Of a stretch of DNA of 64,000 nt, positions 1,232 to 63,309 are shown piece by piece. The position numbers were made by a program, and so were the translations under genes. Source of the DNA: Leucoraja ocellata (Eukaryota). How positions within the stretch are numbered: position 1 is the stretch's first letter; each line of letters begins with the position of its first letter. The notes under the pieces are model-generated. The model saw only the letters and a program-made list of their open reading frames with translations. It had not been told where the DNA came from and made no database searches. The stretch is from assembly GCA_036785375.1 (NCBI GenBank), contig JAWMAR010000502.1, positions 1,116,001 to 1,180,000 on the forward strand, written 5' to 3'.

Positions 1232-1595
1232 AATGTCCTGGGTCTTCTCCAATTCCAGAGTGAGACTGCATGCAAACTGGAGGAACAGCACCTTACATTA
1301 CACTTGAGTAACTTACAACCCAATCGTAAGAACATTGACATTAGACAGAAAATGCAGGGGTAACTCAGTGGGTCAGGCAATAACTCCGGAGAAAAGGAAT
1401 AGGTGATGTTTCGGATTGGAACCCTTCTTCAGACTGAACATTGAATTCTCTAATTTTAGGTTTCTAACAAACTCCCCTCCCACTTCTTCTCCTAGCTCCC
1501 TCCACTTTCTGTACCCCCCCTCTCCCCCATACCCCACCTGGACGCACCTATTTCTTCCCTCTCCCATTCCTTCCTATCACTTCACAATTTCTGTG
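1232..1595 (+). mobile_element. Old Penelope-like element 3' fragment (end of GIY-YIG plus pyrimidine tract), interrupted at 1339-1435
   Basis: Encodes VLGLLQFQSETACKLEEQHL, homologous to the GIY-YIG C-terminus at 6225-6965. Confidence 0.8.
1339..1435 (-). mobile_element. 97-bp hammerhead-headed PLE terminal fragment with 9-bp TSD
   Basis: TSD GAACATTGA at 1330-1338 and 1436-1444. Minus strand starts AGTCTGAAGAAGGGTTCCAATCCGAAACATCACC. Confidence 0.8.
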
Positions 1596-5890: not shown

Positions 5891-6017
5891 AACCTGAACT
5901 TGGAAAATGTAATGTTCATATAATTGGGTTGTAGACCACCCAGGCAGAATGTGAGGTTTTGTTCCTCTAGTTTGTATTTGGCCTCACCCTAGCAATGAAG
6001 ACTGAAGACAGATAGGT

Positions 6018-7083
6018 TACACAGAAAAGCTGGAGAAACTCAGCGGGTGCAGCAGCATCTATGGAGCGAAGGAAATAGGCAACGTTTCGGGCCGAAACCC
6101 TTCTTCAGACTGATCAGGGGTGGGGGTGGGTGGGGACAAGAAAGGGAAAAGGAGGAGTAGCCGGAAGGCTGGAGGGTGGGAGGAGACAGCAGGGGAGCTG
6201 AGGAAGGGGAGGAGACAGCAAGGACTAACAGAATTGGGAGAAGTCGATGTTCATGCCCCCGGGGTGCAGACTCCCCAAACGGAATATGAGGTGCTGTTCC
6301 TCCAATTTCCGGTGCTGCTCGCTGTGGCCATGGAGGAGACCCAGGACAGAGAGGTCAGAGGCGGAGTGGGAGGGGGAGTTGAAGTGCTGAGCCACCGGGA
6401 GGTCAGCTAGGTTATTGCGGACCGAGCGGAGGTGTTCGGCGAAACGATCGCCCAACCTCCGCTTGGTCTCACCGATATAGATCTGCTGACATCTAGAGCA
6501 GCGGACGCAATAGATGAGGTTGGAAGAGATGCAGGTAAACCTCTGTCGCACCTGGAACGATTGCTTGGGTCCCTGAAAGGAGTTGAGGGGGGAGGTAAAG
6601 GGACAAGTGTTGCATCTGCTGCGGCCGCAAGGGAAAGTGCCCGGGGAGGGGGTGGACCGAGAGGGAAGGGAAGAATTGACAAGGGAGTTATGGAGGGAGC
6701 GGTCTTTGCGGAAGGCAGATATGGGGGGAGATGGGAAGATGTGGCTAGTAGTGGGGTCACGTTGGAGGTGGCGAAACTGACGGAGGATTATTTTTTGTAT
6801 GTGATGGCTGGTGGGGTGAAAGGTGAGGACTAGGGGGACTCGGCCCTTGTTGCGAGTGCGGGGATGGGGAGAGAGAGCAGTGTTGCGGGGTATGGAAGAG
6901 ACCCTGGTGCGAGCCTCATTTATGGTGGAGGAGGGGAACCCCCGTTCCCTGAATAGTGAGGACATTTCAGATGTCCTGGTGTGGAACGCCTCATCCGTGG
7001 AGCAGATGCGACGTAGACGGAGGAATTGGGAGTAGGGGATGGAGTCCTTACAGGAAGCAGGGTGGGAAGAAGTGTAGTCCAGA
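6018..7083 (-). mobile_element. Young 5'-truncated Neptune-type Penelope-like retroelement (RT thumb, Cys linker, GIY-YIG endonuclease, terminal repeat)
   Basis: ORF 6225-6965 has a CGRSRCNTC linker and LIYCVRCSRCQQIYIGET...RFAEH...AQHF...EEQHLI. 15-bp TSD TGAAGACAGATAGGT at 6003-6017 and 7084-7098. Confidence 0.92.
6077..6112 (-). ncRNA. Minimal type I hammerhead ribozyme motif in the PLE terminal repeat
   Basis: CAGT-CTGAAGA-A-GGGT(TTCG)GCCC-GAAA-CG-TT-GCC: CUGANGA and GAAA core boxes, stem II with a UUCG loop, palindromic AACGTT in place of stem III. Activity not shown. Confidence 0.72.
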
Positions 7084-8004
7084 TGAAGACAGATAGGTCA
7101 GTATGGGAATGGGAAGTGGATTGGAAAAGGCGTGCAACCAGGAAGTCAGGATGGCCACTGCGGACAGAGTACAGGTGTTCCATAAAATAGTCACTAATAG
7201 TTGATTGGTCAAGCTGATGTAGAGAGCACTGAATGCAGGAGATAAAATTAAAGGAGGTGCATTTGAACCTTCGCCTGACCTGGTTGGCTCCCTGGTTGGT
7301 GGAGAGGGTGGAGATATAGAGACCCCCCGTTATTAAAATTGTAGATATTGTAATCTTATTATGTAACATATATGGTGATGTGATTTTAATTTTGATAATC
7401 TTTGTATTAAACTGTATTAAAGATTATTTCAGTACATAACTTTGAAAGTGTCCTACTTTTCTGCTAAATAATGGACAAATTATTGAAAAATATTATCAAA
7501 GCTGATCCGATTGAAAAAGCGCTTTCACTAGAATCAAGAGGTTTAGTTCCTTGTGAAATGGCTCAATCAAGGCACAATACTCCCGTTGTTATGCTGATTA
7601 AACCACTCACAACATAGCGCACCAGTTGGAAAAAATTTACACAACAAGATCACTCGGTCAATTGAATCACTTGAGAATGGCTTTCCACGATAGTCTACAT
7701 GGAATAAATTCTCAATAACTCATCATTTGAGACCCAGGGGCATCAAATGAATATGCAAATATTCCAAGATAAAAAGTTATATGACAGTTTTGAACGTTCA
7801 TTTAGGTTCCGAAGAAAACTAAAATACACTAAAGATTTGATCACATGTTAAAAAAGTAGAGATCTTGGCAATCTCTGTTAATGCTGTCATCTCTTTGAAT
7901 GTAATAGGATGCTCGCCCAATTATATTTTTGATAACAGCGACACCTTGCATTTATATATGTTAAATATCAGACATTATCCCAAGATTCACATGGGCCATG
8001 TTAG

Positions 8005-10559: not shown

Positions 10560-11915
10560 GAAAGAAATACAAAGTGCTGCAGGCACTCAGTGGGTCCAGC
10601 AGCATCTCTGGTGGGATTGTGCAGGTGGCCTTTCGGGTCAGGACCCTTCTTCAAACTTATTGTAGAGGGGAGAAAGATGGAAAAGAGGGTCAAGGGCAGA
10701 GCAAAGCCTGGCAAGTGATGGATGCAAATGGTTGAGAGGGGATGTGACCTGCAGATGAGTATAGTAGGTGATAGTAGATAAAGCTAAAGGTGGAAAGGAG
10801 ACAAAAGGGTGTCAGGAGTGGAAGAATTAAATATACAACCAGAGAAAGGGATATGGGTTTAGTTTAGTAGAGAGATGCAGCGCGGAAACAGGCCCTTCTG
10901 CCCACCGAGTCCACACCGGCCATCGATCCCCGCACATTAACACTCACACACTAGGGACAATTTTACATTTATATATTATACCAAGCTAATTATCCTACAA
11001 CCCTGTATGCCTTTGGAGTGTGGGAGGAAACCGAAGATCTTGGAGAAAATGGGAAGAATGTACAAACTCCATACATACAGCACTCATAGTCAGGATCGAA
11101 CCCGGGACCCGCGTCTCTGGTGCTGTAAAGCAGCAACTCCACCGCTGCGCCACCGTGCCGCCCAGGTGAAAAGAGGATGGGAGAGAATGGAAAGAGGGGA
11201 TTAAAAGGGAAATGGGGGTCTCGGGGATGGGAGATAAGAAAGTGAGGGTGGGAGCAAGGTGATTAGAGGTGGTGGTGGGAGGAGCACAGGAAAGGGGGGG
11301 GGGGGGGTGGTAGAAGTTGAAATTAGAGAATTCAATGGCATACCGTTGGGATGCAAGCTACCCAAGTGGAATATGAGGTGCTGTTCCTTCAGTTTGCACA
11401 TGGCCTCAGTAACCATTTTGCCAAATACGTCTCATCCGCCAAGGTCTGCTAGATCTCCCGGTTGCTCACATTTTAATTCCTATTCCCATTCCTATACTGG
11501 TCTTTCTGTCCTTTGCCTATTCCATTGTCAGAGCAAGGCAACATGCAAACTGGAGGAACAGCACCTCATATTTGTATGGAACGCAAGGGTATGAACACTG
11601 AATTCTCCAATTTCAAATAATAAACCCCTTCTCTTTCCCATGCCCCCCCCCCCCCCCCCCCCCGCACATTACTCCCACACATCCAATTATCCTGCTGCTT
11701 TCCCCTCCTTTGTACACTCATTGCCAATTCCCGTCTTTCATTCCCCCTCACTCCCATTCTCTTCCACCTCTATCCCTCACTTCACCTTTATATGTCACTC
11801 GACCCAACTGCCATTCAAACTCTCCCATCACCCGTATCCATCTGCTGGGCCTGCTGAGTTCCTCAGCACTTTGTGTTAAGCTCAAGATTTCAGTGTCAGC
11901 TTCTTGTGACTCCAG
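10560..11915. mobile_element. Inverted pair of decayed PLE 3' ends (minus 10560-11410, plus 11430-11915) with a nested SINE
   Basis: KLKEQHLIFHLGSLHPNGM on minus and CKLEEQHLIF on plus; degenerate hammerhead at 10623-10657 (-). Confidence 0.75.
10857..11163 (-). mobile_element. HE1-like tRNA-derived SINE
   Basis: A and B boxes, central domain, CR1-like 3' end with (CTAAA)n. Confidence 0.85.
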
Positions 11916-12117
11916 TACAAGTTGCACTGTTCTAATGATATAGATGATTGCCTTTGCATACCCAGACATACATGCATAAAATCTAACAATTCGTTTACTT
12001 AATTCTTTTTTTGTTTGTCACTCTCCACATTTGTAAAATTGTATTTGTAATGAATCGGCATGATGCAGAATAGAGTTTACAAAAATAAATACAGATAGAA
12101 GAGGTTATTTGAACAAT

Positions 12118-12406
12118 GGGCGGCACAGTGGTGCAGAGATAGAGTTGCTGCCTTACAGCACCAGAGACCCAGGTTCGATCCTGACCACGGGTGCTGTCTG
12201 TATGGAGTTTGTACGTTCTCCCTATGGGTTTTCTCCGAGATCTTCGATTTCCTGCCACACTACAAAGACGTACAGATTTGTAGGTTAATTAGCTTGGTAT
12301 AAATGTAAATTGTCCCTATTGTGTGTAGATAGTGTTGATGTGCAGGGATCACTGGTCGGTGCGAACTCGGTCACACAAAGGGACTGTTTCCGTGCTGTCT
12401 CTCTAA
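12118..12406 (+). mobile_element. HE1-like tRNA-derived SINE
   Basis: GGGCGGCACAGTGGTGCAG...AGGTTCGATCC...CTGTTTCCGTGCTGTCTCTCTAAA. Confidence 0.88.
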
Positions 12407-13076
12407 AAAAAAGTTAACCTCAACCAAAGTAAGTTATCACCATATCAATAATTAAAACCCTTTTGATTCTTTATCCTCAACTTGAGCTTAAATATAGTGG
12501 CTCAAGAAGCCATTTCAGACGATAGTAAAGAGTCAATGATATTAATCTGCCTCTGCAATCACATGATGGCTATTAATGACAGGAAACTTCCGTCTCTAAC
12601 ATGAACTCGATGGTTTCTATGTCAGAATGGTAAGGCTTATGGTCACCAGCTCAGATAATAATTTTTACATTACAGACATATTTCAGTAAAAGACTTTACT
12701 GACTTTGCAGCCATGGTGGCCTTTAAATTCACCTGTCTGGATCAATAGTCAAGGCCTCCACGTTACTCTCCTTCTTGGGGTTGAGGTTGACTTGTTTCCA
12801 CGCGTGTTCTACAGGTTCTGAGGTGGCTGATTAAATCAATGTGTGAGCGACAAGCTTGCACAGACAGAGCAGAAGAGATGATGGGTAGCAGGTTCAGCTA
12901 AGTGCACTCCTATGGTTTTTGCTGGGCTTCTGTTGCTCTAATATAATGTGTGGATCGTCCAACACAAGAACAGACAATCTGGACTTCGTGTTGGAGAAAA
13001 AAAACCTGTCCAGGTGACTGGTGTTATAATGGAAGTGCAATTTTGGGATAATGACCACAACTTCATTGGTTTTAAG

Positions 13077-13160
13077 GGTTTCGGCCCGAATCGTTGCCTA
13101 TTTCCTTCGCTCCATAGATGCTGCTGCACCCGCTGAGTTTCTCCAGCTTTTTTGTGTAAC
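13077..13160 (+). mobile_element. 84-bp PLE terminal fragment starting inside the hammerhead, 16-bp TSD
   Basis: TSD CTTCATTGGTTTTAAG at 13061-13076 and 13161-13176. Insert reads GGTTTCGGCCCGAATCGTTGCC...TTTGTGTAAC. Confidence 0.88.
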
Positions 13161-13924
13161 CTTCATTGGTTTTAAGCTTGACGTAGAAGATGGCTGGACC
13201 TTGCTGTCCAGTCATAGAGTCAAAGAGCGTGGAATCAGGCCTTCGGCCCACATGCCCACACCAGCTAACATGTTCCATCTACATTTGTCCCACTTGCCTG
13301 TGTTTATCCCTCTAAACCTATCCTATCCATGTACCTGTCTAATTGCTTCTTAAATGATACTCTCAAAACATATTCTGGCATATCACAGTTCCTTGTGGTA
13401 TTATGTGTCATTTCTATCAAATTGATACCATCCTCAGTTTCTTTATTTAGCCAGGCATAGATCATCCTTCTTGTCGTGTCTTTCTTTCTCAATGAAATCT
13501 ATCATTGCTGAAAATTCTGAAGTGCCTCCTTAAATATCTGCCGCTTTGATATTTCTTTAAATGTCTTCTAAAATTGGCACAAACGTTTTACATGCACTTT
13601 GTCTTCTTGATACACTTCACCAAGTCAGTGAAGACAAATCAGTTGAGAATTTTTAACAGAAGGTGTGATTAAAATGTAAATTATTTCTAATTTTAGACTT
13701 TTAAATGTGATTTATGTGTCTATACCTGAAAGAATGCCTAATGTTTTTTAGTGGATGTTACAGAGCATTTATTGTAAGTACGGTTCTCTTCTAATTCCTG
13801 AAAGAGACACAATATTTCAAGCATTGCCATGGGAAGAAATTACCAGAGGAAAAACTCAAAGTATGTTTCAAAGTTTCTTTCATAAAATGAAACTTGGCCA
13901 CTGAATCTTGAAAAATCACAAAGG

Positions 13925-14130
13925 CCACAATGTGCTGGTGTAACTCACCAGGTCAGGCAGCATCTCTGGAGAACATACATAGATGACATTTGGGTCGCGA
14001 CCCTTCTTCACATTGAGTGTGAAACGTCACCCATCCATGTTCTCCAGAGGTGCCACCTGACTGCTGAGTTAGCCCAGCACTTTGTGTAATTTTGTATATT
14101 AACCAGCATTTGCACTTCCTTGTTTCTATG
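13925..14130. mobile_element. Head-to-head inverted PLE terminal repeats joined at the hammerhead motif
   Basis: The minus arm ends GGGTCGCGACCCTTCTTCAC and the plus arm starts GAAACGTCACCC; the arms are reverse complements. Confidence 0.75.
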
Positions 14131-16075: not shown

Positions 16076-17111
16076 TCCTTTTTCCGGAAGTGGCGGCGCT
16101 GCCCTGGCAGCAGCGGCTCGCCTGCAGTCCGTTGGTTTTTACTTTTTTGTATTGTTTTTTTTCGTTTTTGTCTAGTTATGTTTTTGGTTTTTAGGCTGTG
16201 TTTATGTGGGGAGGGGGGTGGGGGGTGAAACGGGGGCTGCTGTCACTCCCTTCGGGGGAATACGACCTTTTTGTCGTATCCCCCTTCTTTGCCTCCATCT
16301 ACACTGAGGCCTAGCGGAGCCGGCGACCTCGGGACTCTGGAGGCAGCTTACAGGACTCATCCTGGGCTCGCTCCTGGCCCAGCCCGGGATGGAACGGTGC
16401 TCCCGTGAGAGCGGCATGGTGAGGGGCTGGAGTGGCCCAGCCCGAGGGAGGAACGGCACTCCCGTCGGAGTGGCCCAGCCCGAGGGAGGAACGGCACTCC
16501 CGCTGGAGTGGCCCAGCCTGAGGGAGGAACGGCACTCCCGTCGGAGTGGCCCAGCCCGAGGGAGGAATGGCACTCCCGTCGGAGTGGCCCAGCCTGAGGG
16601 AGGAATGGCACTCCCGCTGGAGTGGCCCAGCCCGAGGGAGGAACGGCACTCCTGCTGGAGTGGCCCAGCCGAGGGAGGAACGGTACTCACGTGAGGGCGA
16701 TCCGGTCCGGAGGCTGGGACGACGTTCTGGCGGCGGTGTCCAGAGTCCTGGGTTCAGCCGCGGGCCGGCGGCTGCGTGTGCTGGACTGGAGGTGCGGCGG
16801 CTTCGACCACCCCGGGCCGCAGTGTTTCAACCGGCCCGTTCGCGGGGTTCGGTGAGCTGCGGGACTGTTTGTACCATCGCCCGGTGGGGAATCGCCTCAG
16901 CGCAGAGGGAGCAGAGGGAGAGACTGCAACCCTAAGATTTTTGCCTCCACCACAGTGAGGAGGTGTTTGGAGGACTCACTGTGGTGGAAGTTAATTTGTG
17001 TTTATTGTTGTTATTATTGTATCATTGTATGTATGACTGCAGGCACGAAATTCCGTTCAGACCGTAAGGTCTGAATGACAATAAAGGAAATTCAATTCAA
17101 TTCAATTCAAT
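16076..17111 (+). mobile_element. GC-rich non-tRNA retroposon, copy B (apparently full length)
   Basis: Starts TTCCGGAAGTGGCGGCGC. Hairpins at 16254-16284 and 16946-16988; 3' stem TTCAGACC-GTAA-GGTCTGAA, then TGACAATAAA and (ATTCA)n. TSD TCAACC. Confidence 0.82.
16429..16690 (+). repeat. 38-bp minisatellite, about 7 copies
   Basis: Unit GGAGTGGCCCAGCCCGAGGGAGGAACGGCACTCCCGTC starts at 16429, 16467, 16505, 16543, 16581, 16619 and 16657. Confidence 0.92.
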
Positions 17112-18619: not shown

Positions 18620-20345
18620 CAAGAGTCACAAGAGACAACAGATGATGTAAATTTGAGCAAAAAAACAAACCGCTTGAGACAAAAGGTTAGTTTATATTTT
18701 GGGTCGAGGCCCTACATCAGGAGTTTAGAGGGGAGATAGTGACCAGAGAGAGTAGAGAGGGAGGAGTGGCAGGCAATGTGGAACCAGATGAAGAGGGAGA
18801 AGGCAGGTTGATGGAGCCAGTTGGAGAATGTAGACACAGGGACTGTAAAGTGATACGTGGAAATACAAGACGCTTTAGACAAGGAATCTGGTAAGTAAGG
18901 AAGGTGATACGTGGAACAAACGAGGGAGGATTGATGGACAGTGACCATTTGAGGGCGAGGATGGGAGATGCAGTAGACATAGTATGTGAGTGTATGACAT
19001 TGCCTTGGCCTCAGTCCACATACCTGCCTTCCAACAGCCCCAACCCCCATCCTTGCTGTCTGTTCACCATCCCCCCTGACCTCCCCCTTTCGGATACCGA
19101 ATGGCCTGTCCTCAGCAGAGGCCTCACATTTGTTCCCCTCCAACCCCACCTCAATGAGTTCTGCGTTTGCCACGATGTGGAGCTCTTCTTCCGTCGCCTC
19201 TGCCTCAAAGCGTTCTTCCATGGGAAGGAGTCCTCGCCCCCCAGTGATGACCCCTTCTCCTGTCTCCAATGGACCCCCTCCTCTTGGACTCCCCCTCATG
19301 GCCATCTACCGGCTTTAGACCTTATTATTTTAAACTGCCGGAGGGACATCAACCGCCTCAACTTCTCCACTCCCCTGTCTCACTCTAACCTCTCACCCCC
19401 TCAACGTACAGCCCTCCACTCACTCTGCAACAACCCAGACTGGGTGATCAAACCCGCCGACAAGGGAGGTGCCATGGTAGTCTGGCGCGCTGATCTCAAC
19501 AAGGCTGAGGCCACGTGCCAACTCTCAGACACCTCCTCCTACTTATCCTTGGAACACAACCCCACAGACGAGCACCAGGCCTCTATCTCCTGCACTACCA
19601 CTGACTTCATCACTTCCGGCTTGCTGCTTTCCCAAGCCTCCAACCTCATCGTTCCTCAGCCCCGCACGGCACGATTTTACCTTCTCTCCAAAATCCATAA
19701 TCCTGACTGTCCTGGCAGACCCATTGTCCCTGCCTATTCATGCCCTACCGAAATTATTTCCACATACATCGACTACATCCTTTCCCCCCTGGTTAAATCC
19801 TTCCCTACCTATGTTCACACGCTCTTCGTCTACTCCAGGACTTCAGTTTTCTAGGCCCTCATTCCCTCATCTTCACCATGGATGTCCAGTCAATCTACAC
19901 CTCTATCCCCTACCAGGAGGGTCTTAACTCCCTCCATTTCGTCCTCGACCGCAGAACCAACCAATCCCCGTCTACTGATACTCTCCTCCGCCTGGCGGAA
20001 CTGGTCCTTACCCTTAACAACTTTTTGTTTGACTCCTTCCATTTCCTCCAAATACAAGGCATAGCTTTGGACACGAGCATGGGCCCTAGCTATGCCTGCC
20101 TCCTTGTAGGGTACGTTGAACAATCTTTGGTCGAGGCGCACCAGAGCCCTATCCTCAAACTCTACCTCCGCTACATCGACGACTGCGTTGATGCTACCTC
20201 CTGCACCCACACACGAGTCACTGACCATCCATTTCACACTAACTTCCATCCAGCATTCAAATACACCTGGACCATTTCCGACATTTCCCTACCATTTCTC
20301 GACCTCATTATCTCCATCGCAGGTGGTGGACTACTGACCGACATC
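18620..20345 (+). mobile_element. Penelope-like element RT region (pseudogenised) preceded by an inverted terminal repeat
   Basis: ORFs 18904-19854 and 19878-20345 contain IKPADKGG, KIHNPDCPGRPIV, MDVQSIYTSIP, MGPSYA and YLRYIDD. Degenerate hammerhead on minus at about 18690-18722. Confidence 0.88.
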
Positions 20346-20346: not shown

Positions 20347-23300
20347 GGATCGGATTTAACCTTAGATTTGTGTTACGCAATACTATTCTTGGAAGAATTC
20401 GGTGAAGGGTGTCCATGTCTTGAAAAATTGATCTGGTTTTTCTGCCAAGACAAGCCTAATGTTTTCCAAATGTAGTGTCTCGTACATGTTTGTAATCCAT
20501 ATCTTCACTGCAGGGACTGTTGGTTGTTTCCAAAATTTAAGTATTAATTTTTTCGCCGTTATCAGGCCATTGTTAAGGAAACGTCTGAAATAGTGCTGGC
20601 TTAGAAAAGGCTTCTGACATACCTAATGTGATCAATGTTATGTCGGGGTTCAATTTTAGAAAATATATCAAAAATTCCCCTCCAGAAGTTGTGTAATTTT
20701 GTACAGGAAGCAAAGGAATGGGTTATGGTTGGAGGAGACATTTATCACAAATAGGGGAGACATTTGGGAAGATCTTATTCAATTTAGACTTTGAGTAATA
20801 AAGTCTATGCAGTATTTTAAATAGAATTAGCGAGTGCCTAACATTAAGAGAAACGTTGTGTATATATAGAAGGCTTTCCTCCCAACTATCTTTTAAAATT
20901 GTTAGACCCAGTTCACCTTCCCAAGCTCGCCTAATTATTTCCGACGATGGAGTTTGTAATTTTAAAAGGGTATTATAAAGGTACGATTTTAACTTATTTG
21001 AATCCGACTTTCTATTCATGCATTCATCTAGTAAATCTGGAACCATATATTAACAGTCTTGTGTATGTGATTTCACATAGTCTCGTATTTGAAGATATCT
21101 AAAGTATTGGCTACCTTTCAGATGATATTTCGACTGTAATTCTTGAAATGAGAGGAGAGTCCCCATCTCATAAAGGTCTCCCAGCTTTTTAATTCCTAAG
21201 CTTTCCCATTGTACACACGCCTTGTCTAAAGTAGACGGTTTAAACGAGGGATTATTGGCGATTAGAGGAGAGATAAATTTCTCAATTTGAGGGTTGATTT
21301 CAACTGTTTCCAGATTCATAAGGTGATATGGATTATCGGGTTTTTCTCATACGTTGAATTCTTCAGATTTATTGGAGAAAGAATCGCACCTATATTGAAA
21401 GGCAAACAATCTTCCCTCTCCATATTTAGCCAGTTTACTTGTTGGCATGTATCGTCCATCCAATAAATTAAATTTTTAATGTTCGTTGCCCAGCAATAGT
21501 AAAAAAATTAGGGAAAACCAGTCCGCTGATTTCTTTAGGTTTGCATAAATGTCCTTTGTGAATTCTGTGAGTTTTATAATCCCAGATAAAGTTTGTAATT
21601 GCAGAATCGTTTTTTTGGGAGAAAATCGGTATTGATTAAAATAGGTACAGGATTTGTGGAAGGAAAATCATCTTTATGGCATTTATTCTACCTATAAGGG
21701 AGATCGGAAGTGTTTTCCAAAATTGAATAAGGGCATTTAATTTGGTGATTAATGGTGGAAAATCTGCTTGAAATAAAGAGGAGTATTTTCTAATCACGTA
21801 AATTCCAAGATATTTAAATGTTTCCGAAGTAATTCTAAAGGGAAATTTTAGAAGGTGTGTTGGGTCCTGAGGTTTTATCGACATAATTTCACTTTTGTTC
21901 CAGTTTATTCCATACCCTGAAAAGGAGCTAAATTCTTCTATAAGATTTAGTATGTTTGTAATATTAAGTTGGGAGTTGGTAATATATAATAGTACATCGT
22001 CTGCATACAACGATATCTTATTATTCGAATATTTAATATTATAGCCGTGAATGTTCAGATGTACTCTTATACTTTCAGCTAAGGGTTCAATTGCAAGGGC
22101 AAATAACAGTGGTGATAATGCACACCCTTGTCTATTGCCCCTGGCTAATTGAAATTTAGGTGAGAGTGTTTGATTAGTCAGTATTCTGGCAGTCGGCTTG
22201 TTATATAACAACTTTATCCATGAAATAAAATTTTCTCCTAGTTGAAATTTTTGCAATACTATGAAGAGATATTCCCATTCTACTTGGTCGAATGCTTTTT
22301 CTGCATCTAATGAAATGATTGATAAGTCTTCTTTTATCGTTCTATGCGAGTACATTATATAAAACAGGCGTCTCAAGTTATTGAACGAGTGTCTTGAGTA
22401 TAAACCCAGTTTGATTAGGGTGTATTAATTTTCTAACATATTTAGTCTTCTTGCCAGAGTTTTAGCTAATATTTTCTGGTCTGTATTTAGAAGAGCTATT
22501 GCTCTATATGATCCTGGCTCATCGAGATCTTTATCTTTTTTGGGTGTCTGTGTGATAGTTGATTCGGCTAAAGTTTGTGGTAGCGTCAGTTCTTTAAATG
22601 CGTGTATATAAAGGGCTTGTAAATGAGGAGAGATTAATTCATGATTTTTTTAATAAAATTTGTTATAAACCCATCTGGGCCTGGCGTTTTACCATTATTC
22701 AGTGATTTAATAGTCTCTTCAATGTCTTTTATTGTGATCTGCGCTCCTAGTTCTTCATGTTCCGCCGCATTAAGTGACGGAAGATTGCAATTGTCAAGGA
22801 AGATTTTAATCTTTATTGTTTCTTCGGAAGTTTTAGATGTGTATACATTTTGATAGAATTGTAAAAATCCTTCATTGATATCTTTAGGGAGTGTAAACAA
22901 CTCACCTTTTTCTGATTTAATTTTTTGAATGGTATGATCTTTTTCCATTTTTCTCTCTGGCGTGCCAGAAGTTTGTGCAGTTTATCACCGAATTCAAAGT
23001 TTTTTGGCTTAGTATTTTGAAATAACTTGATAACTCTTGCAGAGATAATTTGATTTAACTTGAATTTTAATACTGCTATCTTATTATGTTTATCCATAGA
23101 AGGATCAGTAGCATTTTCTGAATCAATCTGTCTAATCTGTTCTTCTAATTCCAATTGTTCCGTCCTATTCTTTTTATTTTGATATGCTTGATATGAGATA
23201 ATAGAACCTCTAATAAAGGCCTTAAAAGATTTCCATAATAACGAGGCCGAAATACCTGGTGTGTCATTTATCTCACAAAATAATTCCATCTGTTGCTTCA

Positions 23301-23447
23301 AATATTCACAGCAAACTGGGTTGGTTAATATTGGAGGATTAAATCTCCAGAACATTTTTTTATTGTACATTTCTTCTAATTTTAAGGAGAATGTTAAAGG
23401 GCAATGATCAGAAATAATATTATTATGATATTTGGGATTTGTTGTTG
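20347..23447 (-). mobile_element. L1-clade LINE ORF2 (5'-truncated, frameshifted)
   Basis: End of the APE domain (ISDHCP), WRFNP, GKTPGPDG, LDAEKAFD, GNRQGCALSPLLF, LYADD and C-terminal SPICDKC. Confidence 0.92.
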
Positions 23448-23559
23448 GATCCTCTATCCTCTACCACACCCGTTTCTATTTACCCATCATCTCTCCCTTA
23501 CTTCATTCCAATTATTACTTCCTTACTTATCAGTTTCCAGTATCTTGTGTTGACATTTA

Positions 23560-23852: not shown

Positions 23853-24388
23853 TAGAAACATAGAAACATAGAAAATAGGTGCAGGAGTAGGCCATTCGGC
23901 CCTTCGAGCCTGCACTGCCATTCAATATGATCATGGCTGATCATCCAACTCGGTATCCTGTTCCTGCCTTCTCTCCATACCCCCTGATCCCTTTAGCCAC
24001 AAGGGCCACATCTAACTCCCTCTTAAATATAGCCAATGAACGTATCCTTAAACTATGACCCCTTATTCTGGACTTCCCCAACATCGGGAACAATCTTCCT
24101 GCATCTAGCCTGTCCAACCCCTTAAGAATTTTGTAAGTTACTATAAGATCCCCCCTCAATCTTCTAAATTCTAGCAAGTACAAACCGAGTCTATCCAATG
24201 TTTCTTCATATGAAAGTCCTGACATCCCAGGAATCAGTCTGGTGAACCTTCTCTGTACTCCCTCTCTGGCAAGAATGTCTTTCCTCAGATTAGGAGACCA
24301 AAACTGTACACAATACTTCAGGTGTGGGCTCACCAAGACCCTGTACAACTGCAGTAGAACCTCCCTGCTCCTATACTCAAATCCTTTT
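23853..24388 (-). mobile_element. CR1 LINE 3' fragment, second subfamily
   Basis: LVSPHLKYCVQFWSP...RRLRGDLI; (CTATGTTT)n tail. Confidence 0.9.
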
Positions 24389-25744
24389 GCTCCTCTTCCT
24401 CCACATCACTTTCCCCTTGCCCCACCTGGCGTCTCCCTCTTTCCTTATGTTTCTATCTACTACCTATCAGCCAGTCTCCCAACCATCCATTCCACCCAGC
24501 CTCCAACGCCACTTCCACTGCCTCATCCTGCACTCCGTCCCTCTCCTCCCCCAAAGACTTAGCTCCTTTTGCCAGAGATTCTGAGAGCAATTGAAAAATA
24601 GATGCTGAGAAGTTGTTTCCTCCTGTAGGAGGGTCGAGAGCAAGGGCCTCATAGCCTCAGGATAAGGGGTTGACACTGATCAGCCGTGGACTTGTAAATC
24701 TTTGGAAATCTCATTTTCATAACACTGCAATTGCCTAATTAAAGGCATTGCCAAGGCTGAGATTAACAGGTGTTTTGATTCTGAGTAAATGGGGATTGTG
24801 TAAAAAACAGAATTGAGATAGCCACAATTAGATAGTCCATACAATCAGCCACTATTGTGTTGACTATCTAAGCAGGCTTGAGGATGCTGCTCTTGTATCC
24901 TATGTTCACATTCGTACGTGATTTCTAGACACTCAGGCATTGGCATTTACATTTCAGTAACTGAAATTGTGATACAAGAAGTAGAACTGCAAGAGGCAAT
25001 CCAAATGATTAAAATTACTTCCTGACAATTGTTGCATTAGAATTGCAAATAAAATATTTTTCAGTCTCATATCATTATGGACATGAAAACCAAATGCTAA
25101 GATTGTACATCATCCTCAGATCAGCATCACTGGTTAGTTTATCATTACAGCAAATGTCATGTGCTATGCTGAATGTGATGCTGTGCCTTATAAATAGAAA
25201 CACTTTACCTCTCACCTACGTATATAGGATACATCCGTGCTATTTAAAAAAAAAAACAATTCTCATCTGGAGATTAAATATATATGGAAAGACATCAATT
25301 ACACTTGCATATCATTTCCTACCAATTCAACAATGATGAGCCATGACCTACATCTTAGACAATCAGAATGATTTATTGAGTGGAATTAGGCCATTCAGCC
25401 CAATTTGTGACATACAGCCATAAAGAGAGTAGATCAGAGTAACGACAGTTCTCTATTGTTCATCGGTTGAACTGCCGATAAGTGTCCATCCAGGCTTTTC
25501 ATTTATGTGAAGAGGGCTTTGTAGAAAATGTAGAAAGTATCATTATTACTAGATAGAAGGTAGGTAGTTTCAGTAAGCGGCCATTATGGTATATAGCATT
25601 ACCGAGTGTATACTTACTCTGCGAGCTTCATGCAAACAAGGAATTTCTTTGCACCCTATTGACAAATGACCCCATGACAATAAATTAATCTGAATTTGAA
25701 TGTGTGGACACGGATTTTATACCTTGGAATATAGGAGGCTTAAA

Positions 25745-27704: not shown

Positions 27705-30376
27705 GAACAAAGCACAACAATGAATTATCTCAGATATTGTAACCAGAGTGAATAAGTACAATGAATTTCAGCAGATTGTGAGCCCTGCAGTGTTTGTAAT
27801 GAAGCACTCTGGAGAGAGGGTGCCTCTCTACATCTTCAATCATTAATTAATACCAGCTAATATCATTACTAATATTATTTTAATTTTAGGAAATGCTGCA
27901 AATAGAGATATCAAACATATTTAATCAATTGCAATGTGCATTTCAACTTGCACTTTTATGTTTTAGTTGAGACAATATCCACGAGCCACTCATCCAACAG
28001 TGTTGACAAAGACTCAGTGATGATCACTTCCTCTTGAGTTCGAAAGCTCTGGGTTTGAAGATCTACTGTTGAGAGTTAACCAAAATAAATATGCACTGGC
28101 ATTCTAGTATATTACTCAGGTGGCACTGCACTCTCAAAGATATGACCCAACACAAGATTTGACAAATTGCAGCCTAATTACTTCACCCTTTCTGGCATGC
28201 CCAGCAGCCAAGCAGATTCTCCTACCACCCACCCATACTAGGGGGGAAATTTATAACAGCCGATTAAACTACATCCGTATGTCTTTGGGATGCAGCATGA
28301 AACCAGATGATATGGCTTTCACCAAACAGTCACATTGTGACAGCGATGCCTCCAGACACATGTCATTAAAGATCAGCATTAAACCCATGTTGCTGGCAAC
28401 ATGTGCCAGCAGAAATCCCCGTTGAACCATTGTATACTGCTGTGTTAATCTGACTTTCAACTAAAGCATCGATGCCATGGCTGAAATAGAACCATGGTTA
28501 TCATACAGCATGTAATGTAATAATGTTGTCTATGCTCTAGTAGTACACATCATAACTGGCTATCACAACTATTAACAGACATGTAAGGTAGCCACAGTAT
28601 TAACAGACATGGCAAGGTCTCCACAGTGCCTCAGCTCATCCCATCCATGGATTTGTTCATGTATCACCCTGCGTGTGCTGCCTTACATCAACTTTCAAAA
28701 CACAATGTTTCAATTTGAAAAGTTTCATCCTTGTTTGCAAGAAAACATGGCTTTGACTTTCTCTATCCCCTTATCTCCTCCAAACCTCAGAGGTATCTGT
28801 GCTCCTTTCAGTGCCTTGACCATCCCCAATCATATGACCCATATTGGTGGACATTCACATGCCTTATATTTGTAAGAGGACCATTCGTGGAAAGGAAACA
28901 ACCCCAACGCTGACCTCCACAAACTACAGAGGTATCTCTGAAAGTCAAGCCAGAGATCACAGCTGGCTCCAATTATCCTTTTGTGCCTGGATTTTAATGC
29001 ATTCCCCCAGAGCAATGATCTGTTTGCACAATATAGGAAAAAATTAGCACTACTTCTCAGTCAATGGATGAACACTTAACGCACTGTAGATGGTCCTGCA
29101 AAGATCAAAGAGAAGTAGAATTATTGAAAAGTCCTTATGCGGCACAGTGGCGCAATAGTAGAGTTGCTGCCTTACAGTGTCAGAGAGCTGGGTTCAATCC
29201 CAACTATGGGTGCTGTATGTATGGAGTTTGTGCTTTCTCCATTTGCCTGTGTGGATTTTCTCTAGGTTCTCTGGTTTCTTCCCACACCCAAAGACGTATA
29301 GGTTTGTAGGTTAATTAACCTGTAAAACTGCCCCTAATTTGTAGGATAGTGTTAATGCAAGGGGTGAGCACTGGTTGGCTCAGACTCTGTGGGCCAAAGG
29401 AGCCGTTTCCACACTGTATCTTTAAAGTCTAAAGCAGTGTGGACACAGTAGGCTGTATAGCCTCCTAGTGTACAGTAAATTTCTACCTCCATAACTTCTT
29501 GCTTGTTGCATCCACATGCCACATCTATAAAAATAAATCAGCACAGCGCTATTTTTACCAACACCATTTCACCCTCCTGAGAATAAGACAAAGCTGTAAT
29601 ATTATCTGGTCTAACAATCTGAAAAATTGGAGATCTTCTACTCGCCAGCATGTTATGAAGTCTTCAAAATCCTACAAGCGATAAATTGGAAAGGAACAAC
29701 GCTAATTGCTGTCCTTTGAGAGATGAGCTGTGAGGAACAGCAGGATGATTTCAAATTCTTTCACTTAAAAAAAAAGTCTTAAAAATGAAGTTACAATGTG
29801 ATACAACATACACCAGTGCAACAGCCTGGAGCTGAATAGTTCATTGTGATGATAGGCGAGTTTGCAATAGATGGAAGTATTTATTTGCATAGAGGATATT
29901 TAACAACTGTGAAGGGATGGCTGAAGGAAGCAATTCATGTTCATACCTTGTAACTTTGTGATGTGATATTGCTGCATCTGAAACGTGGCTTCTGTCATAT
30001 TTCAATTTTCTGCACTGCTTTACTGTTATAAATAGTTCAGAATTCTGAACTGATCTCAGAGTTCAACTATTTCATATCACGCTTTTATTACCACACCCCT
30101 GACTGACACCTGCGGTCTTTCCCCCTCCCCCCCCCCCTCATTCCACAAACACCATCTTCTACCCACCTGACACAGCAATGTTGGAAATATTCAGCAAAAA
30201 CATCCATGGAGCGCAAATTAGAATTAGCACTTCAGGTTGATCAGAATGACAGATAGGTTGCAGCATGCAAGGAGGACATTTGGCTTATTGAGTTCATGTC
30301 CAAGCAATCCAACTAGCAGGGTAGAAAAATTCTTCCAGACACTTATCCAACTTTGTTAATATTACATGTTAACAAA
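27705..30376 (+). repeat. Old tandem segmental duplication, copy 2 (non-aligning middle about 28410-29517, including a SINE)
   Basis: Shared blocks include TATTTTTACCAACACC, AATATTATCTGGTCTAACAA and GGAAGTATTTATTTGCATAGAGG. Confidence 0.88.
29140..29433 (+). mobile_element. HE1-like tRNA-derived SINE
   Basis: GCGGCACAGTGGCGCA...GGGTTCAATCC...GTTTCCACACTGTATCTTTAAA. Confidence 0.85.
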
Positions 30377-33347: not shown

Positions 33348-33856
33348 CTGCATCTGCTGCTCTAGATGTCAGCTGATCTACATCAGTGAGACTAAGCGGA
33401 GGTTGGGCGATCGTTCAGTCCGCAAGAACCTACCTGACCTCCCGGTGGCTCAGCACTTCAACTCCCCCTCCCATTCCCAATCCGACCTCTCTGTCCTGGG
33501 TCTCCTCCATTGCCAGAGTGAGCAACACAGGAAATTGGAGGAACAGCACCTCATATTCCGCTTGGGGAGCCTGCATCCGGCGGGCATGAACATTGAATTC
33601 TCCCAATTTTGTTAGCCCTTGCTGTCTCCTCCCCTTCCTTAGCCCTTGAGCTGTCTCCTCCCATCCCCCAGCCCTCGGGCTCCTCCTTCTCCTTTCTCCT
33701 TCCTTCTCCCCGCCACCCCCTATCAGTCTGAAGAAGGGTTTCGGCCCGAAACATTATCTATTTCCTTCGCTCCATAGATGCTGCTGCACCCGCTGAGTTT
33801 CTCCAGCATTTTTTTGTATCTTCGATTTTCCAGCATCTGCAGCTCCTTCTTGAACA
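33348..33856 (+). mobile_element. 5'-truncated PLE (GIY-YIG end plus terminal repeat with hammerhead at 33724-33760) inserted in an old CR1
   Basis: 14-bp TSD TATTCTCTTCCGGA at 33334-33347 and 33857-33870; encodes LPVAQHFNSPSH...EEQHLIFRLG. Confidence 0.9.
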
Positions 33857-35989
33857 TATTCTCTTCCGGATGTTGACCATATCCTCCATCTAAGAATTGA
33901 CTTTAACAGCTTCCCTACCATGGACATGAGACTCACAGGCTTATAATTTCCTGGATTATCCCCATTTACCTTTCTTAAAAAAAGGAACCACGTTGGTTAT
34001 CTTCCAATTCTCCAGGATTTCACTTGTGGCAGACAGGATACAAAGATCTTCGTCAAGTTGCCACCAATGTCCAATCGTACCTCTCTTGTTAACCTGGGAT
34101 AGATCTTATCTAGGACTATCCAAACAATATTAATGCTCTCAAGAGACCCACCACCACCACCTCTTTCTTCATCTCTGAAGGTTCCTAGCCTATTATTATA
34201 CCCCGCACTGATCTTACTACCCCCCGAGTTCTTCTCCATGGTGAATTCAGACGTAGGCAAGTCCATGAATCTGGTTCCACAGTCTACAAGGTTATGTTCA
34301 TGTGATAGGAGCAGAATTAGGCCATTTGGCCCATCAAGTCCACTCCGCCATTCAATCATGACACACGCACGCACACACACACGCGCACACGCACACGCAC
34401 ACCTTCCGTCTTTCCACTCTGGCCTTTGTCTAGCCATCTGCTTATTAAGCCTTACCTCACCTATAGCAACCCATTACTTGCCAGACTTTGCCCAGCCCCT
34501 CCTGTCCTCCAGCTCCCCCCACCTCCCACAATCACTCTGAAATAGGGTCCCAACCCAACACGTCACCTATCTATGTTCTCCAGTTATGCTACCTGACCCG
34601 CTGAGTTACTGCAGCACATTGTATCTTTTAAAAAACAAAACATTCTGTGGCTGGAATGAGATTCAGACATTAATTCAAACTACAACAAATAGGAACGTAT
34701 AATTAAATAAATCAGTAATTTTATGTGCCTTGAATAAAAAGCTGATACCATTATGGAAAATGAACACTTGCCACAGTCATAAAAGACAATCTGAAGCCCA
34801 AACCTCATTATGGGTAGTGAATCTACTAGTGTGGCCTATATGTGATCCCTAGACAACAGCAAGTTGGCTGCCACATACTGTAACTGCACTATATGTGAAA
34901 TAAGGCAGCAAACTACTCATTATAAAATACTCCTTAGTGGTATCTTCATCAAACATACTGCAGACACAAATAGCTTGAAGACAGTCAAAGCTGGCCAGCA
35001 AATATTGGCCTTGTCAGTGACAGCCATGGTCTGTGAATAAATGAACAATGTGAAAAGGTGCTGAAAATATATCTCCTTCATTAGAATTGCATAAACATCT
35101 ATCAGAGAATAATTGCGTTGTGGGAACAATAATGAATAAATGCAAAGCTAGAGGCTGAAAGGAAGCTGGTTAAAGAAGAATGATTCTGCTTCACTTTGCT
35201 ATTAGCTAAATGTTTAATGGGATTCCATTAGCTGGAATAAAGGTAGTGAATGAGAGATTGGAATGGAGCTATGAAAAGCTGAACTTTCCACTGTGCAATT
35301 ACATCTGGGTATAAAATGTGAACATTTACAGTCTTGCAGATTGTTACACACAAATTCCATTTGTTTTTAAAAGGGTAATTTGCACCCCCCCCAAACAGTG
35401 CAGAATCTCAAATGTTCATTATAATGATCTAGAGATCTTGTTGTAAGCTATACCACCGATGTTGGTGTCATGAGCAAATTTAGAATTTTAACTACAGCGG
35501 ACCCACCACCAACCTTAGTGGCACACAGCTGGTCATAGACCAGAAAAACAGTCAGAAAAACACCTCTCCAGAGCTACCGTTTGACACCTTCCTCCAAGCT
35601 AATTTTGAATCCAATTGTCTAGTTTACTTTAGATTCCATGTGATCACACCTTCTGGACTAGCCTACCATCAGTCTGAACCTGAAATCCCATCTGTCTCCA
35701 TGGATGCTGCCTGACCTGCTGAGTTCATCTTTGTGTTTTGCTCAAGAACCAGCATTTGCAGTTTCTTGTGTTTACAGGGAATTATCCCATCACTGGTGTT
35801 AGGTTCACCAGCCTGCAAATAGAAATAATAACTTACATTTAAAAAATAAATGGATTAATGCCACTCCAAAATACAGTCTCAGAATTTCATTATTGTCAAA
35901 TGCGAAATCAGAGTTGCAGAAATACATTGGTATACATTGTGTCATATATTAACTGCTAGTTCAAAGTATCTACACTGAACAGGCCACCA

Positions 35990-39164: not shown

Positions 39165-39572
39165 ATGAGTTAAGAGAGTCAAGAGTGTTTTTATTGTCAT
39201 ATGTCCCGAATGGGACAATGAAATTCTTATTTGCTGCAGCACAACGAATATGTGAATGTATAAACATAGTACATAATGGGGGAAGAGAAAAAAAGAAAAA
39301 AATCAATAAATAACAAATATAGTGCAATAATAATATAGTCTTTTGCATTTCAGAGGTCAGAGCTCAGAGCTAATTCATTGTTGTGTTTAATAGTCTGATG
39401 GCTGTAGGGAAGAAGCTGTTCCTGAAGGTACACAAAAATGCTGGAGAAACTCAGCAGGTGCAGCAGCATCTATGGAGCGAAGGAAATAGGCAATGTTTCG
39501 GGCCAAAACCCTTCTTCAGTTGTTCCTGAACCTGGACGTTACAGTTTTCAGGCTCCTGTACCTTCATCCTGA
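39165..39572 (-). mobile_element. Rex1/Babar 3' end with a nested PLE mini-insertion
   Basis: Minus strand encodes RRYRSLKTVTSRFRNSFFPTAIRLLN across the insertion; 3' stem TGTCCC-ATTC-GGGACA then TGACAATAAA. Confidence 0.82.
39427..39520 (-). mobile_element. 94-bp hammerhead-headed PLE terminal fragment with 10-bp TSD
   Basis: TSD TGTTCCTGAA at 39417-39426 and 39521-39530. Minus strand starts (A)CTGAAGAAGGGTTTTGGCCCGAAACATTGCC. Confidence 0.88.
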
Positions 39573-40523
39573 GGTCAGCCTGACCCGGCACAATGCTGTT
39601 GATTCTTTTCACCAGGGAGCTGAACAAGGCTGCATTTGATGCTCATTTACCCGATTATTCTAGGATCTGTAGTGGCTACACCAATACCATGACCTGCAAC
39701 AACTACAAACACACCACATGTCACCTTCTGTACCTGCCTCTGCTTCCATGCAATGAGATTGTCCTGTCCCACGTTCTAAACTGACCATGACATTTTAGAG
39801 CAATCGTGAATGCTATGGACTATCAATTCCTTATTCACTGTGTCCGTCAAACATTCTCATAAATGACATGATTACAAATTCAAAGTCCTTGTAGAGAAAA
39901 CTTATATATATTTGTCAAGATGGAGTTAAAGGTGAATGAGGGAAAAAAAATCTAAAATAGTGCAAAGCAAAGTCACAAAGAACTGGTTACTTTATCCATC
40001 TAAGATCCTGCAGTAAGGAACATTTGAAACCATCTCTTTCCTTGAAAGACATATTTGATTCAAACTTAATTAGTTCATAAATATAGCACAGACATTGTTA
40101 GCACTATGACAAATTTGATCTTTGCAATAATTTAAACATGCGACCGTATGAACGAGATATCTTGTTCATGTTTTTTTTTTTTTAATAATTTCCACTGATG
40201 AAAACCAGGCATTATTCATATGCCTAATCATACACACATTAATAAAATCAAAGTTTCATCCCAAAACATCAAGTAACTTGGGAACTGTAATAATCTTTTC
40301 TTCCTTACCTACTGTAACTTACAACACAGACAAGTTTGGTTTCCAGATGCTGCAACTGTAACTAATCTAAATTTTCATTAATGAAGCTGCAAAATGCAGA
40401 ACATAGAAAATAGGTGCAGGAGTAGGCCATTCGGCCCTTTGAGCCTGCACCGTCATTCAATATGATCATGGCTGATCATCCAACTCAGTATCCTGTACCT
40501 GACTTCTCTCAATACCCCCTGAT

Positions 40524-40669
40524 GCTGCTGCTGCACTTTTCCCTTTCTTGTCCCCACCCACCCCCGCCCCCGATCAGTCTGAAGAAGGGTTTCGGCCCGA
40601 AACGTTGCCTATTTCCTTCGCTCCATAGATGCTGCTGCACCCGCTGAGTTTCTCCAGCTTTTTTGTGTA
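40524..40669 (+). mobile_element. 146-bp PLE terminal fragment with intact hammerhead motif (40575-40610), 10-bp TSD
   Basis: TSD ACCCCCTGAT at 40514-40523 and 40670-40679; contains CAGTCTGAAGAAGGGTTTCGGCCCGAAACGTTGCC. Confidence 0.88.
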
Positions 40670-41139
40670 ACCCCCTGATCCCTTTTGCCACAAGTGCCAC
40701 ATCTAACTCCCTCTTAAATATAGCCAATGAACCGGCCTCAACTACCTTCTGTGGCAGAGAATTCCAGAGATTCACCACTCTCTGTGTGAAAAAAAAAAAA
40801 AAAAATCTCGGTCCTAAAAGACTTCCCCCTTATCCTTAAACTGTGACCCCTTGTTCTGGACTTCCCCAACATCGGGAACAATCTTCCTGCATCTAGCCTG
40901 TCCAGCCCCTTAAGAATTTTGTAAGTTTCAATAAGATCCCCCCTCAATCTTCTAAATTCTAGCGAGTACGAGCAGAGTCTATCCAGTCTTTCTTTATATG
41001 AAAGTCCTGCCATCCCAGGAATCAGTCTGGTGAACCTTCTCTGTACTCCCCCTATGGCAAGAATGTCTTTCCTCAGATTAGGAGACCAAAACTGTACACA
41101 ATACTCCAGGTGTGGTCTCACCATGGCCCTGTACAAGGC

Positions 41140-42000
41140 CCTTGCGTGTCACTGATGGGGATGTCAGAATATAGAAGAGAGATCGAGCAACTGTCCATAT
41201 GGTGCCAGCGCAATAAACTGGCCCTCAACACCAGCAAAACCAAGGAACTGATTGTGGACTTTGGAAGGAGTAGGAGGGGGACCCACAGCCCCATTTATAT
41301 CAACGGGTTGAAAGGGTCAAGAACTTCAAATTTCTGGGCGTGCACATCTCTGAAGATCTTTCCTGGTCCGAGAACACTAATGTAATTATCAAAAAAGCTC
41401 ATCAGCGCCTCTACTTCCTGAGAAGATTACGGAGAGTCGGTTTGTCAAGGAAGATTCTCTCTAACTTCTACAGGTGCACAGTCGAGAGCATGCTGACCGG
41501 TTGCATCGTGGCTTGGTTTGGCAATTTGAGCGCCCTGGAGAGGAAAAGACTGCAAAAAGTAGTAAACACTGCCCAGTCCATCATCGGCTCTGACCTCCCT
41601 TCCATCAAGGGGATTTATCGCAGTCGCTGCCTCAAAAAGGCTGGTAGTATCATCAAAGACCCACACCATCCTGGCCACACACTCATCTCCCTGCTACCTT
41701 CAGGTAGAAGGTACAGGAGCCTGAAGACTGCAACAAACAGGTTCAGGAATAGCTGCTTCCCCACAGCCATCAGGCTATTAAATCTGGCTCGGACAAAACT
41801 CTGATTATTAATAACCACTTTCTGTTATTTGCACTTTACCAGTTTATTTATTCATGTGTGTATATATTTATATCAGGGTATATGGACATATTTATCTGTT
41901 TTGTAGTAAATGCCTACTATTTTCTGTGTGCTTAAGCAAAGCAAGAATTTCATTGTCCTATACAGGGACACATGACAATAAACTCACTTGAACTTGAACT
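41140..42000 (+). mobile_element. Rex1/Babar LINE 3' portion (young)
   Basis: ORF 41340-41804 (KKAHQRLYFLRRLRR...PSGRRYRSLK); (CTTGAA)n tail. Confidence 0.92.
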
Positions 42001-52376: not shown

Positions 52377-52540
52377 TACACAAGAAACTGCAGACGCTGG
52401 AATCTTGAGCAAAACACAATGTTCTATTGTGGGAATAGATAAGTCTGAAGAAGGATCCCGACCCAAAACATCGCCTATCCATTCCCTCTGCCGATGCTCC
52501 CTGAACCACTGAGTTACTCCAGCATTTTATGTTTTGCCCT
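52377..52540. mobile_element. Inverted PLE terminal-repeat fragments with the junction at the hammerhead
   Basis: Minus arm 52377-52425; plus arm starts AGTCTGAAGAAGGATCCCGACCCAAAACATC at 52442. Confidence 0.7.
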
Positions 52541-54183: not shown

Positions 54184-54481
54184 TGGGCGGCACCGTGGCG
54201 CAGCGCTCGGGTTGCCACCTTACTGCTCCACAGACCCGGGTTCGATTCTGACTATAGGTGTTGTCTGTATCAAGTTTGTACGTTCTTCCTGTTATCGTGT
54301 GGGTTTTCTCCAGGTGCTCCAGTTTCCTCCCATATTCCAAAGACATGCAGGTTTGTAGGTTAATTGGCTTCAGTATAAATTGTAAATTGTCCCCAGTATG
54401 AAGTGTACAGGGTGATCGCTGGTTGGTGGGGACTTGGTGGGCCGAAGAGCCTGTTTCCACGCTGTATCCGTAAAGTAAAGT
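54184..54481 (+). mobile_element. HE1-like tRNA-derived SINE
   Basis: A and B boxes, central domain, CR1-like tail. Confidence 0.87.
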
Positions 54482-57700: not shown

Positions 57701-57789
57701 ATGGCACTCCAGAGACTTGAGTAAAAAACAAGAGGGTACTAAACTGACAGTGATGGCATACTTTGATGTTATATATTAACAAATATCTG

Positions 57790-63275: not shown

Positions 63276-63309
63276 TTAAGTATAGAAGTTGGGAGGACAT
63301 TTTGCAGTT

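Follow-up and report, generated by a model that had tools for sequence, protein, structure and literature searches.

The 64-kb stretch of DNA analysed here (hereafter, the window) carries 14 dispersed sites of a minimal hammerhead ribozyme (min-HHR) motif, one of them an intact core within a young, 5'-truncated copy of a Penelope-like element (PLE). Positions in the motif are numbered from hammerhead C3 (position 0), which places the predicted cut between +27 and +28. A Hamming scan of the window with a 28-nt query and at most seven mismatches identified 13 sites, with C3 at 1432, 6108, 10654, 14011, 18720, 39519, and 43155 on the minus strand and at 33728, 34537, 40579, 50563, 52445, and 59484 on the plus strand; a fourteenth, at 13074 on the plus strand, has no CUGA box. 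Alignment confirmed all 14 of the approximately 14 sites listed by a sequence-only reading of this DNA. The features are as follows.

1341–1440, minus strand: older solo copy that keeps the core but has a decayed stem III palindrome
6013–7084, minus strand: young 5'-truncated PLE copy with RT thumb, CX4CxxC linker, GIY-YIG, stop, and pLTR with hammerhead
6081–6108, minus strand: intact min-HHR core running from C3 (6108) to H17 (6081), with the cut predicted between 6081 and 6080
6108–6113, minus strand: initiator-like TCAGTC, whose A+1 lies at −3 relative to C3 and which overlaps helix I on its 5' strand; putative promoter element
10566–10660, minus strand: decayed copy
13074–13162, plus strand: solo mini-copy, 5' end within the core (+6), target-site duplication of ~15 bp
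13924–14120, both strands: head-to-head inverted pair of decayed pLTR ends (13924–14021 on minus, 14022–14120 on plus)
18693–18720, minus strand: heavily decayed core that faces, head-to-head, an older remnant of PLE RT (19008–20345, plus strand); missed by the post-cleavage HMM
33349–33856, plus strand: PLE 3' fragment with endonuclease end, pLTR, and tail; core 33728–33755, G16.2 changed to A
34532–34625, plus strand: decayed copy
39429–39519, minus strand: solo mini-copy, 5' end at C3, no 5' strand of helix I; target-site duplication
40536–40672, plus strand: solo pLTR with intact min-HHR (core 40579–40606), inside a LINE-like repeat
43128–43155, minus strand: heavily decayed core; missed by the post-cleavage HMM
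49040–50653, plus strand: 5'-truncated PLE with frameshifted RT (YIDD) and GIY-YIG; core 50563–50590, G16.2 changed to A
52438–52532, plus strand: decayed solo copy with an inverted tail piece directly before it
59484–59611, plus strand: solo copy of an older subfamily, with tail; G12 and G16.2 changed to A

The copies have in common a stretch of ~90 bp, with the motif at its start, and three of them run upstream into GIY-YIG or RT plus GIY-YIG coding sequence. A structure descriptor consisting of the full core (C3 U4 G5 A6 N7 G8 A9 ... G12 A13 A14 A15.1 ... U16.1 H17), a 4-bp stem II, and UH was passed by 6 of the 14 sites, with a chance expectation of 0.01 sites per window (100 dinucleotide shuffles). 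Only the sites at 6108 (minus) and 40579 (plus) retain, in addition, the CG palindrome together with 2 bp in helix I, so that the intact status previously assigned to these two sites holds. The sites previously called near-intact do exist, but that at 59484 has lost G12 and that at 39519 lacks the 5' strand of helix I.

Several other repeats accompany these copies. The copy at 59484 splits a palindromic MITE-like hairpin (59413–59483 and 59612–59628), with an apparent 6-bp target duplication. The LINE-like repeat around the copy at 40579 (40400–40732) has a homologue without the copy at 23865–24041, and a 13-nt scrap of its own pLTR precedes this copy. A dispersed repeat of ~300 bp, SINE-like by size, occurs at 1601–1736, 10868–11164, 12115–12414, 29139–29428, 54184–54481, and 60270–60341, and a short tandem repeat with a period of ~38 or 76 bp lies at 16426–16692. 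Segments at 21636–23460, 23941–24405, 40738–42759, 48482–49066, 50967–51578, 57270–57824, and 63242–63952 are presumably remnants from several LINE-like RT/endonuclease families, resembling L1/Tx1 and CR1/L2.

The source element and its copy number

The young copy at 6013–7084 is 99.8% identical to an intact 3,985-bp unit at G000:C1:8.66–8.67 Mb. A spacing of 3,985 bp among the genome matches pointed to a tandem array there (8.664–8.674 Mb), ~9.9 kb long and consisting of 2.5 head-to-tail units, one 5'-truncated and two full. Because the units are 99.9% identical and the whole array is flanked by a single 14-bp duplication, it probably arose by a single insertion from a longer-than-unit template. 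One full unit carries an open 1,234-amino-acid ORF that combines RT, a Zn-linker, and GIY-YIG, with the landmarks DKG, YIDD at 881, C-X4-C-X2-C at residue 1101, and CSRC..YIGET at 1144; the GIY-YIG domain has the CCHH residues, with H at about 1166 and 1182. The Pfam domains in the element are RVT_1 and GIY-YIG, and a protein-cluster atlas lookup returned only RVT_1/HTH_animal/GIY-YIG clusters. In each array unit, the ribozyme lies in a non-coding spacer, 117 nt past the stop and ~165 nt ahead of the next start codon. This linkage of the motif, in a pLTR, to an RT plus GIY-YIG element bears out the proposal that it belongs to the minimal hammerheads, here of type I, which have a palindromic stem III and reside in PLE terminal repeats.

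The element is, judged by its linker and domain layout, of the Neptune type. It has a single ORF with a C-terminal GIY-YIG and CCHH residues and a Zn-finger linker between RT and EN, and its insertions show partial tandems, inverted 5'-truncated partners, an optional tail, and target-site duplications (TSDs). As described for Neptune EN+ PLEs by Craig et al. (2021; bioRxiv 2021.04.23.441226 / PMC8557442), these elements are alike in C-terminal GIY-YIG with CCHH, CX2-5CxxC, DKG, partial tandems, inverted 5'-truncated partners, and a 30–40-bp tail; the CX2-5CxxC linker marks Neptune- and Nematis-type elements alike, and the likeness is one of motifs. Unlike those elements as described there, the present ORF has a long proline-rich N-terminal stretch. 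Residues ~190–500 of the intact ORF (L011 and L012) form this Pro/Ala/Gly-rich, partly repetitive stretch before the RT. L011 also holds, at 339–1280, a 313-amino-acid ORF with a resemblance to Tc1/mariner transposase.

The motif itself is the already known PLE min-HHR of Cervera and De la Pena (2014; PMC4209133), whose examples, as that paper presents them, include fish Xena, Poseidon, and Neptune. Both have type I topology, a helix III limited to palindromic 15.2/16.2 (here a CG palindrome), G10.1–C11.1, and an unpaired base between 9 and 10.1. In the present family this extra base is A in 55 of 55 young copies, and it had been held against the assignment; it is instead a trait of the published consensus (PMC4209133). 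A location in both flanking repeats and a predominance of solo copies are likewise common to the two. In contrast to them, helix II here has only 4 bp, and helix I consists of 2 bp beside the core, a 2 × 2 loop, and then 3 bp, with a predicted pair probability of at most 0.012.

In the 3.44-Gb genome, whose repeats are probably like those of cartilaginous fishes, an exact 31-mer of the motif occurs 25,986 times, and the intact degenerate core occurs 90,901 times, against 0 for the reversed control. Density was estimated with an HMM trained on post-cleavage sequence only and applied to 76 stretches taken at round coordinates on contigs C1–C800. This detected 301 pLTR 3' parts in 759,400 bp outside the window (~1 per 2.5 kb) and none in reversed sequence, which extrapolates roughly to ~1.4 million pLTR ends genome-wide. 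The very high density proposed earlier therefore stands for the genome, but nothing about it is special to this window, where the same HMM gave 15 matches in 64 kb, which is below average. Counts of about 9,000 min-HHRs in X. tropicalis and about 4,000 in the coelacanth, obtained with different descriptors, are given in PMC4209133, and 126,247 canonical hammerhead motifs are given for the axolotl (PMC7229834; bioRxiv 2026.07.22.740005). As far as the published axolotl and X. tropicalis counts go, the copy number here is thus high but not unprecedented.

Ends of the dispersed copies

To map the insertion ends, 120 copies were chosen solely by a 25-mer downstream of the cut, and 11 likely segmental duplicates were dropped; two anchored copies were relabelled by eye. 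In the remaining 109 copies, which come from contigs C1–C2 and the youngest families only, 68 of the 5' ends fell within −9 to +10, 6 within −90 to −10, 6 within +11 to +27, 3 at +28, and 26 beyond −90. The 3' ends were of two kinds, 62 near +93 without a tail and 47 with a tail reaching about +129. A TSD of at least 7 bp was present in 31 of the 45 non-inverted short copies, compared with 1 of 45 controls, and 33 short copies had an inverted partner. Genome-wide, the longer exact word used there gave a boundary at −3 in 1,624 matches, and among older subfamilies, 48 of the 66 copies reaching CAGT stop near there. No genome-wide peak of 5' ends was found at the cut (286 matches at +28, 174 at +31, and 104 at +26), and 30 inspected +28 loci comprised 18 inverted junctions, 5 stem II deletions, 5 plain truncations, and 2 others. 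The position of the 5' ends at the ribozyme edge, and not at the cut, indicates that the templates were overwhelmingly uncleaved, as in the anole element in vitro. Head-to-head junctions cluster at three palindromes of the motif (about −5 to +3, +10 to +24, and +28; e.g., L031, L052, and L172), which suggests fold-back joining.

The predominance of short copies, together with reports that retrozymes are pLTR-derived, could mean that these copies form a non-autonomous lineage apart, either SINE-like or retrozyme, whose 5' end is fixed. However, the 5' ends are ragged, each of four subfamily types has both long and short copies (long/short 10/14, 10/27, 9/8, and 2/7), and the copies are dispersed with individual TSDs and are not tandem monomers, all of which make such a lineage quite unlikely. 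We also rejected a retrozyme identity for the window copies, which are dispersed and either ORF-linked or solo and do not form tandem, short, ORF-less hammerhead monomers.

The element's RT–GIY-YIG protein would nick the target DNA and prime reverse transcription internally, at +93 or +129, in the way shown in vitro for Poseidon of the anole. A template running through the whole unit would yield long or tandem copies, whereas priming on the leading pLTR would yield a mini-copy ending where the RNA begins. Almost all templates would be uncleaved, and the RNA would most likely start at an internal promoter whose initiator lies over helix I.

We compared this edge with published core-promoter consensus strings, namely the initiators TCAKTY and YYANWYY, the DPE RGWYV, and an MTE consensus. 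With A+1 placed at −3, the motif matched TCAKTY at 6 of 6 positions, YYANWYY at 7 of 7, the MTE at 8–9 of 12, and RGWYV at 4 of 5, the best of 12 registers. The DPE lies at an offset of +28. Given the hammerhead, 0.4% of randomised motifs had an initiator within −6 to −1 by chance; the corresponding figures for the MTE and DPE matches, which are partly implied by the core, were 22% and 37%. This promoter-match test was post hoc. Penelope of D. virilis is described as having an internal Inr/DPE promoter, and PLE promoters are described as lying in the pLTR. The edge ends had their mode at −4 or −2, with 23 of the 68 lying in −4 to −9. If −3 were the only start, the mode should lie there, which was not seen; extra starts, microhomology, or an RT stop would be needed. 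No clear excess of cap-derived G was seen at −4 in the first 100 matches, judged by eye.

The 5' pile-up may well mark RNA starts at a promoter inside the element, with its initiator lying across helix I; this is the reading that we tentatively favour. An arrest of RT or a repair hot spot, caused by the edge of the C-rich tract, a protein footprint, or palindrome fold-back, is a realistic possibility of lower rank: the ends spread from −9 to +10, the pile-up starts exactly at the end of the C-run, and many junctions lie at the palindromes TCAG-T-CTGA, the stem II region, or GGCC. Against arrest, a perfect initiator lies within the modal zone, the same edge occurs in two related species, and PLE promoters are reported to be internal, of the Inr/DPE type, and in the pLTR. 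Furthermore, none of the 33 inverted partner arms ends upstream of −5, in a search that reached 170 nt and in which longer partners were undetectable. A cause that is neither an RNA start nor an RT stop is rather improbable.

The long pyrimidine tract and CAG directly before the core also resemble a 3' splice site, which would derive the short copies from spliced RNA, and in the D. virilis ribozyme as described in PMC4209133, an intron ends at helix I. However, copies often retain AGT, CAGT, or more of the would-be intron, there is no common upstream exon, and no splice-like joint appeared among the RNA matches listed for related species. The splice-site reading, rejected on the retained intron bases and the missing common exon, is most improbable.

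To return to the internal promoter, the hammerhead could itself double as the core promoter, with the initiator on helix I and MTE/DPE-like bases on stem II and the ACGU palindrome. The RNA would then open with the ribozyme as its leading 40 nt, and internal priming 93 or 129 nt downstream would give rise to mini-insertions of the ribozyme alone in great numbers, amounting to roughly a million relics. We regard this complete scheme as speculative and, on balance, unlikely.

Decay, folding, and RNA

In 55 young copies, 10 of 550 non-CpG core cells and 8 of 330 stem II cells were off the column majority. In 66 mixed-age copies, the core was changed at 28 of 660 positions and the free positions (N7 and the extra A) at 6 of 132. 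The CpG at G12 had decayed in 46 of 112 copies, compared with 34 of 110 for a neutral loop CpG. Genome-wide, changes numbered 5,268 at A6, 4,967 at A9, and 5,011 at the free extra A; variants at N7 were commoner (9,032), an excess that may come from tolerated variation in the masters or from sequence context.

Between subfamily A (27 copies) and subfamily B (46 copies), none of the 13 core positions differed, and differences lay at H17, 11.4, the loop, and 1.1, all tolerated positions; downstream, 8 of 15 positions differed (ungapped count). A comparison of core with flank (173/594) was discarded, the subfamilies being one base out of register there. Because the core is unchanged between subfamilies while it decays freely in copies, the constraint apparently acts on the masters and not on the dispersed copies. 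The stem changes between A and B are U-G/U-A and one-sided, and no two-sided pair change was seen between subfamilies, C and D comprising 4 and 6 copies; covariation of the stems is therefore unsupported. Variation of the stem II loop does not supply it either, since the loops CCTG and TCCA are probably products of CpG decay.

An Rfam scan at E ≤ 5 returned no hammerhead family and seven weak unrelated matches, which we take as a limit of the models. MFE folding gave no excess stability (z of 0.12 and 0.15). The MFE structure of the monomer differs from the hammerhead in that downstream pyrimidines pair with the purine-rich core, in a calculation that modelled no tertiary contacts. The constrained active fold lies 2.2–6.4 kcal/mol above the MFE, and the probability of stem II in the predicted ensembles is 0.001–0.04. 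At 40579–40620 and in most copies, the pyrimidine stretch at +33 to +41 can pair with the purine-rich core, as a predicted core-masking helix. A hand-set double hammerhead has a predicted energy of −5.9 kcal/mol, compared with −25.0 kcal/mol for the best dimer; since it is far weaker than this alternative, cleavage is uncertain even in master RNA. Only master transcripts would be cleaved after GUU/GUC, in dimeric form and/or assisted by the protein, and cleavage would there trim tandem RNA to unit length or limit transposition.

RNA was checked in raw reads from fragmented libraries of two related species. No depth step across the predicted cut was found in any of three runs in either read direction; depths on its two sides were, for example, 1,621/1,600 and 1,760/1,770 (X21), and no pile-up of read ends appeared at the cut among the positions listed. 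The depth collapses between +3 and −8 in these runs. Because the libraries are fragmented and from other species, this evidence is weak, and low activity would be compatible with it.

That many dispersed copies are active ribozymes cutting host transcripts, in trans or as dimers, with some selected by the host, is very unlikely. The 90,901 cores are intact, and such abundance could favour intermolecular pairing via the ACGU palindrome; in an oligo-dT library of a relative, pLTR reads make up ~0.1% (13,301 of 12.9 million), 94% of which continue into unlike flanks. However, no purifying selection was seen, the 69 of 109 copies that reach −2 are the only ones able to form any helix I, and the anole PLE ribozyme is reported to require its own protein for cleavage (PMC11167929). 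Activity in host transcripts is thus unsupported, given that essential positions mutate like free ones, that two-sided covariation was not seen, that the monomer is not predicted to adopt the fold, and that the RNA shows no step. The averaged decay data would be compatible with a handful of co-opted copies. The dispersed copies decay neutrally, with no sign of host use, and are likely inactive.

Taken together, the motifs are very probably minimal type I hammerheads from a Neptune-type PLE that amplified recently, in whose 3' pseudo-LTR they lie, and the dispersed copies mostly truncated insertions of 90–130 bp that decay neutrally and are likely inactive. The sequence-only reading as a whole is partly supported.

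Relation to known systems

The closest parallel in mechanism is Poseidon of Anolis carolinensis (Frangieh et al. 2024; PMC11167929), which, as described there, starts reverse transcription at two internal points that delimit an optional tail, inserts both strands, uses uncleaved RNA as its main substrate, and has no RNA ends at the cut. In contrast to the present element, with its spacer of ~165 nt and Neptune Zn-linker, the Poseidon ribozyme overlaps the start codon; Poseidon priming is shown in vitro, whereas here it is read from the genome. Animal non-LTR retrozymes (Cervera and De la Pena 2020, PMC7229834; Li et al. 2026, bioRxiv 2026.07.22.740005) are alike in type I hammerheads, very high copy number, and pLTR kinship, but they are described as tandem 150–450-bp monomers with canonical hammerheads and circular RNAs (PMC7229834), unlike the dispersed PLE ends and minimal cores seen here. 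Further literature consulted for comparison comprises PMC3846280, PMC2377424, PMC6765202, PMC6155905, and PMC1475891. In the open literature, leaving aside subscription papers, Repbase, and some supplements, we found no description of the motif in cartilaginous fishes or of the 5' ends of solo pLTRs, and those ends are mapped here, unlike in the accessible part of PMC4209133.

What is added to the known motif is its copy number, an intact young array, and a 5'-end pile-up with a candidate promoter overlap. As a feature of the host, the copies are ordinary repeat debris. What hammerheads do in PLEs can be approached through ~91,000 intact cores, an intact array of near-identical tandem units, and the insertion ends preserved in the genome as a fossil record; with uncleaved templates and two sites of internal priming, this record agrees in vivo with one in vitro study and carries its findings over to a Neptune-type element. 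If the overlap of promoter and ribozyme is true, it would account for solo min-HHRs occurring in swarms across vertebrate genomes, and cleavage, by removing the capped leader and the priming site, would be a brake or a step towards unit circles and not a requirement for copying.
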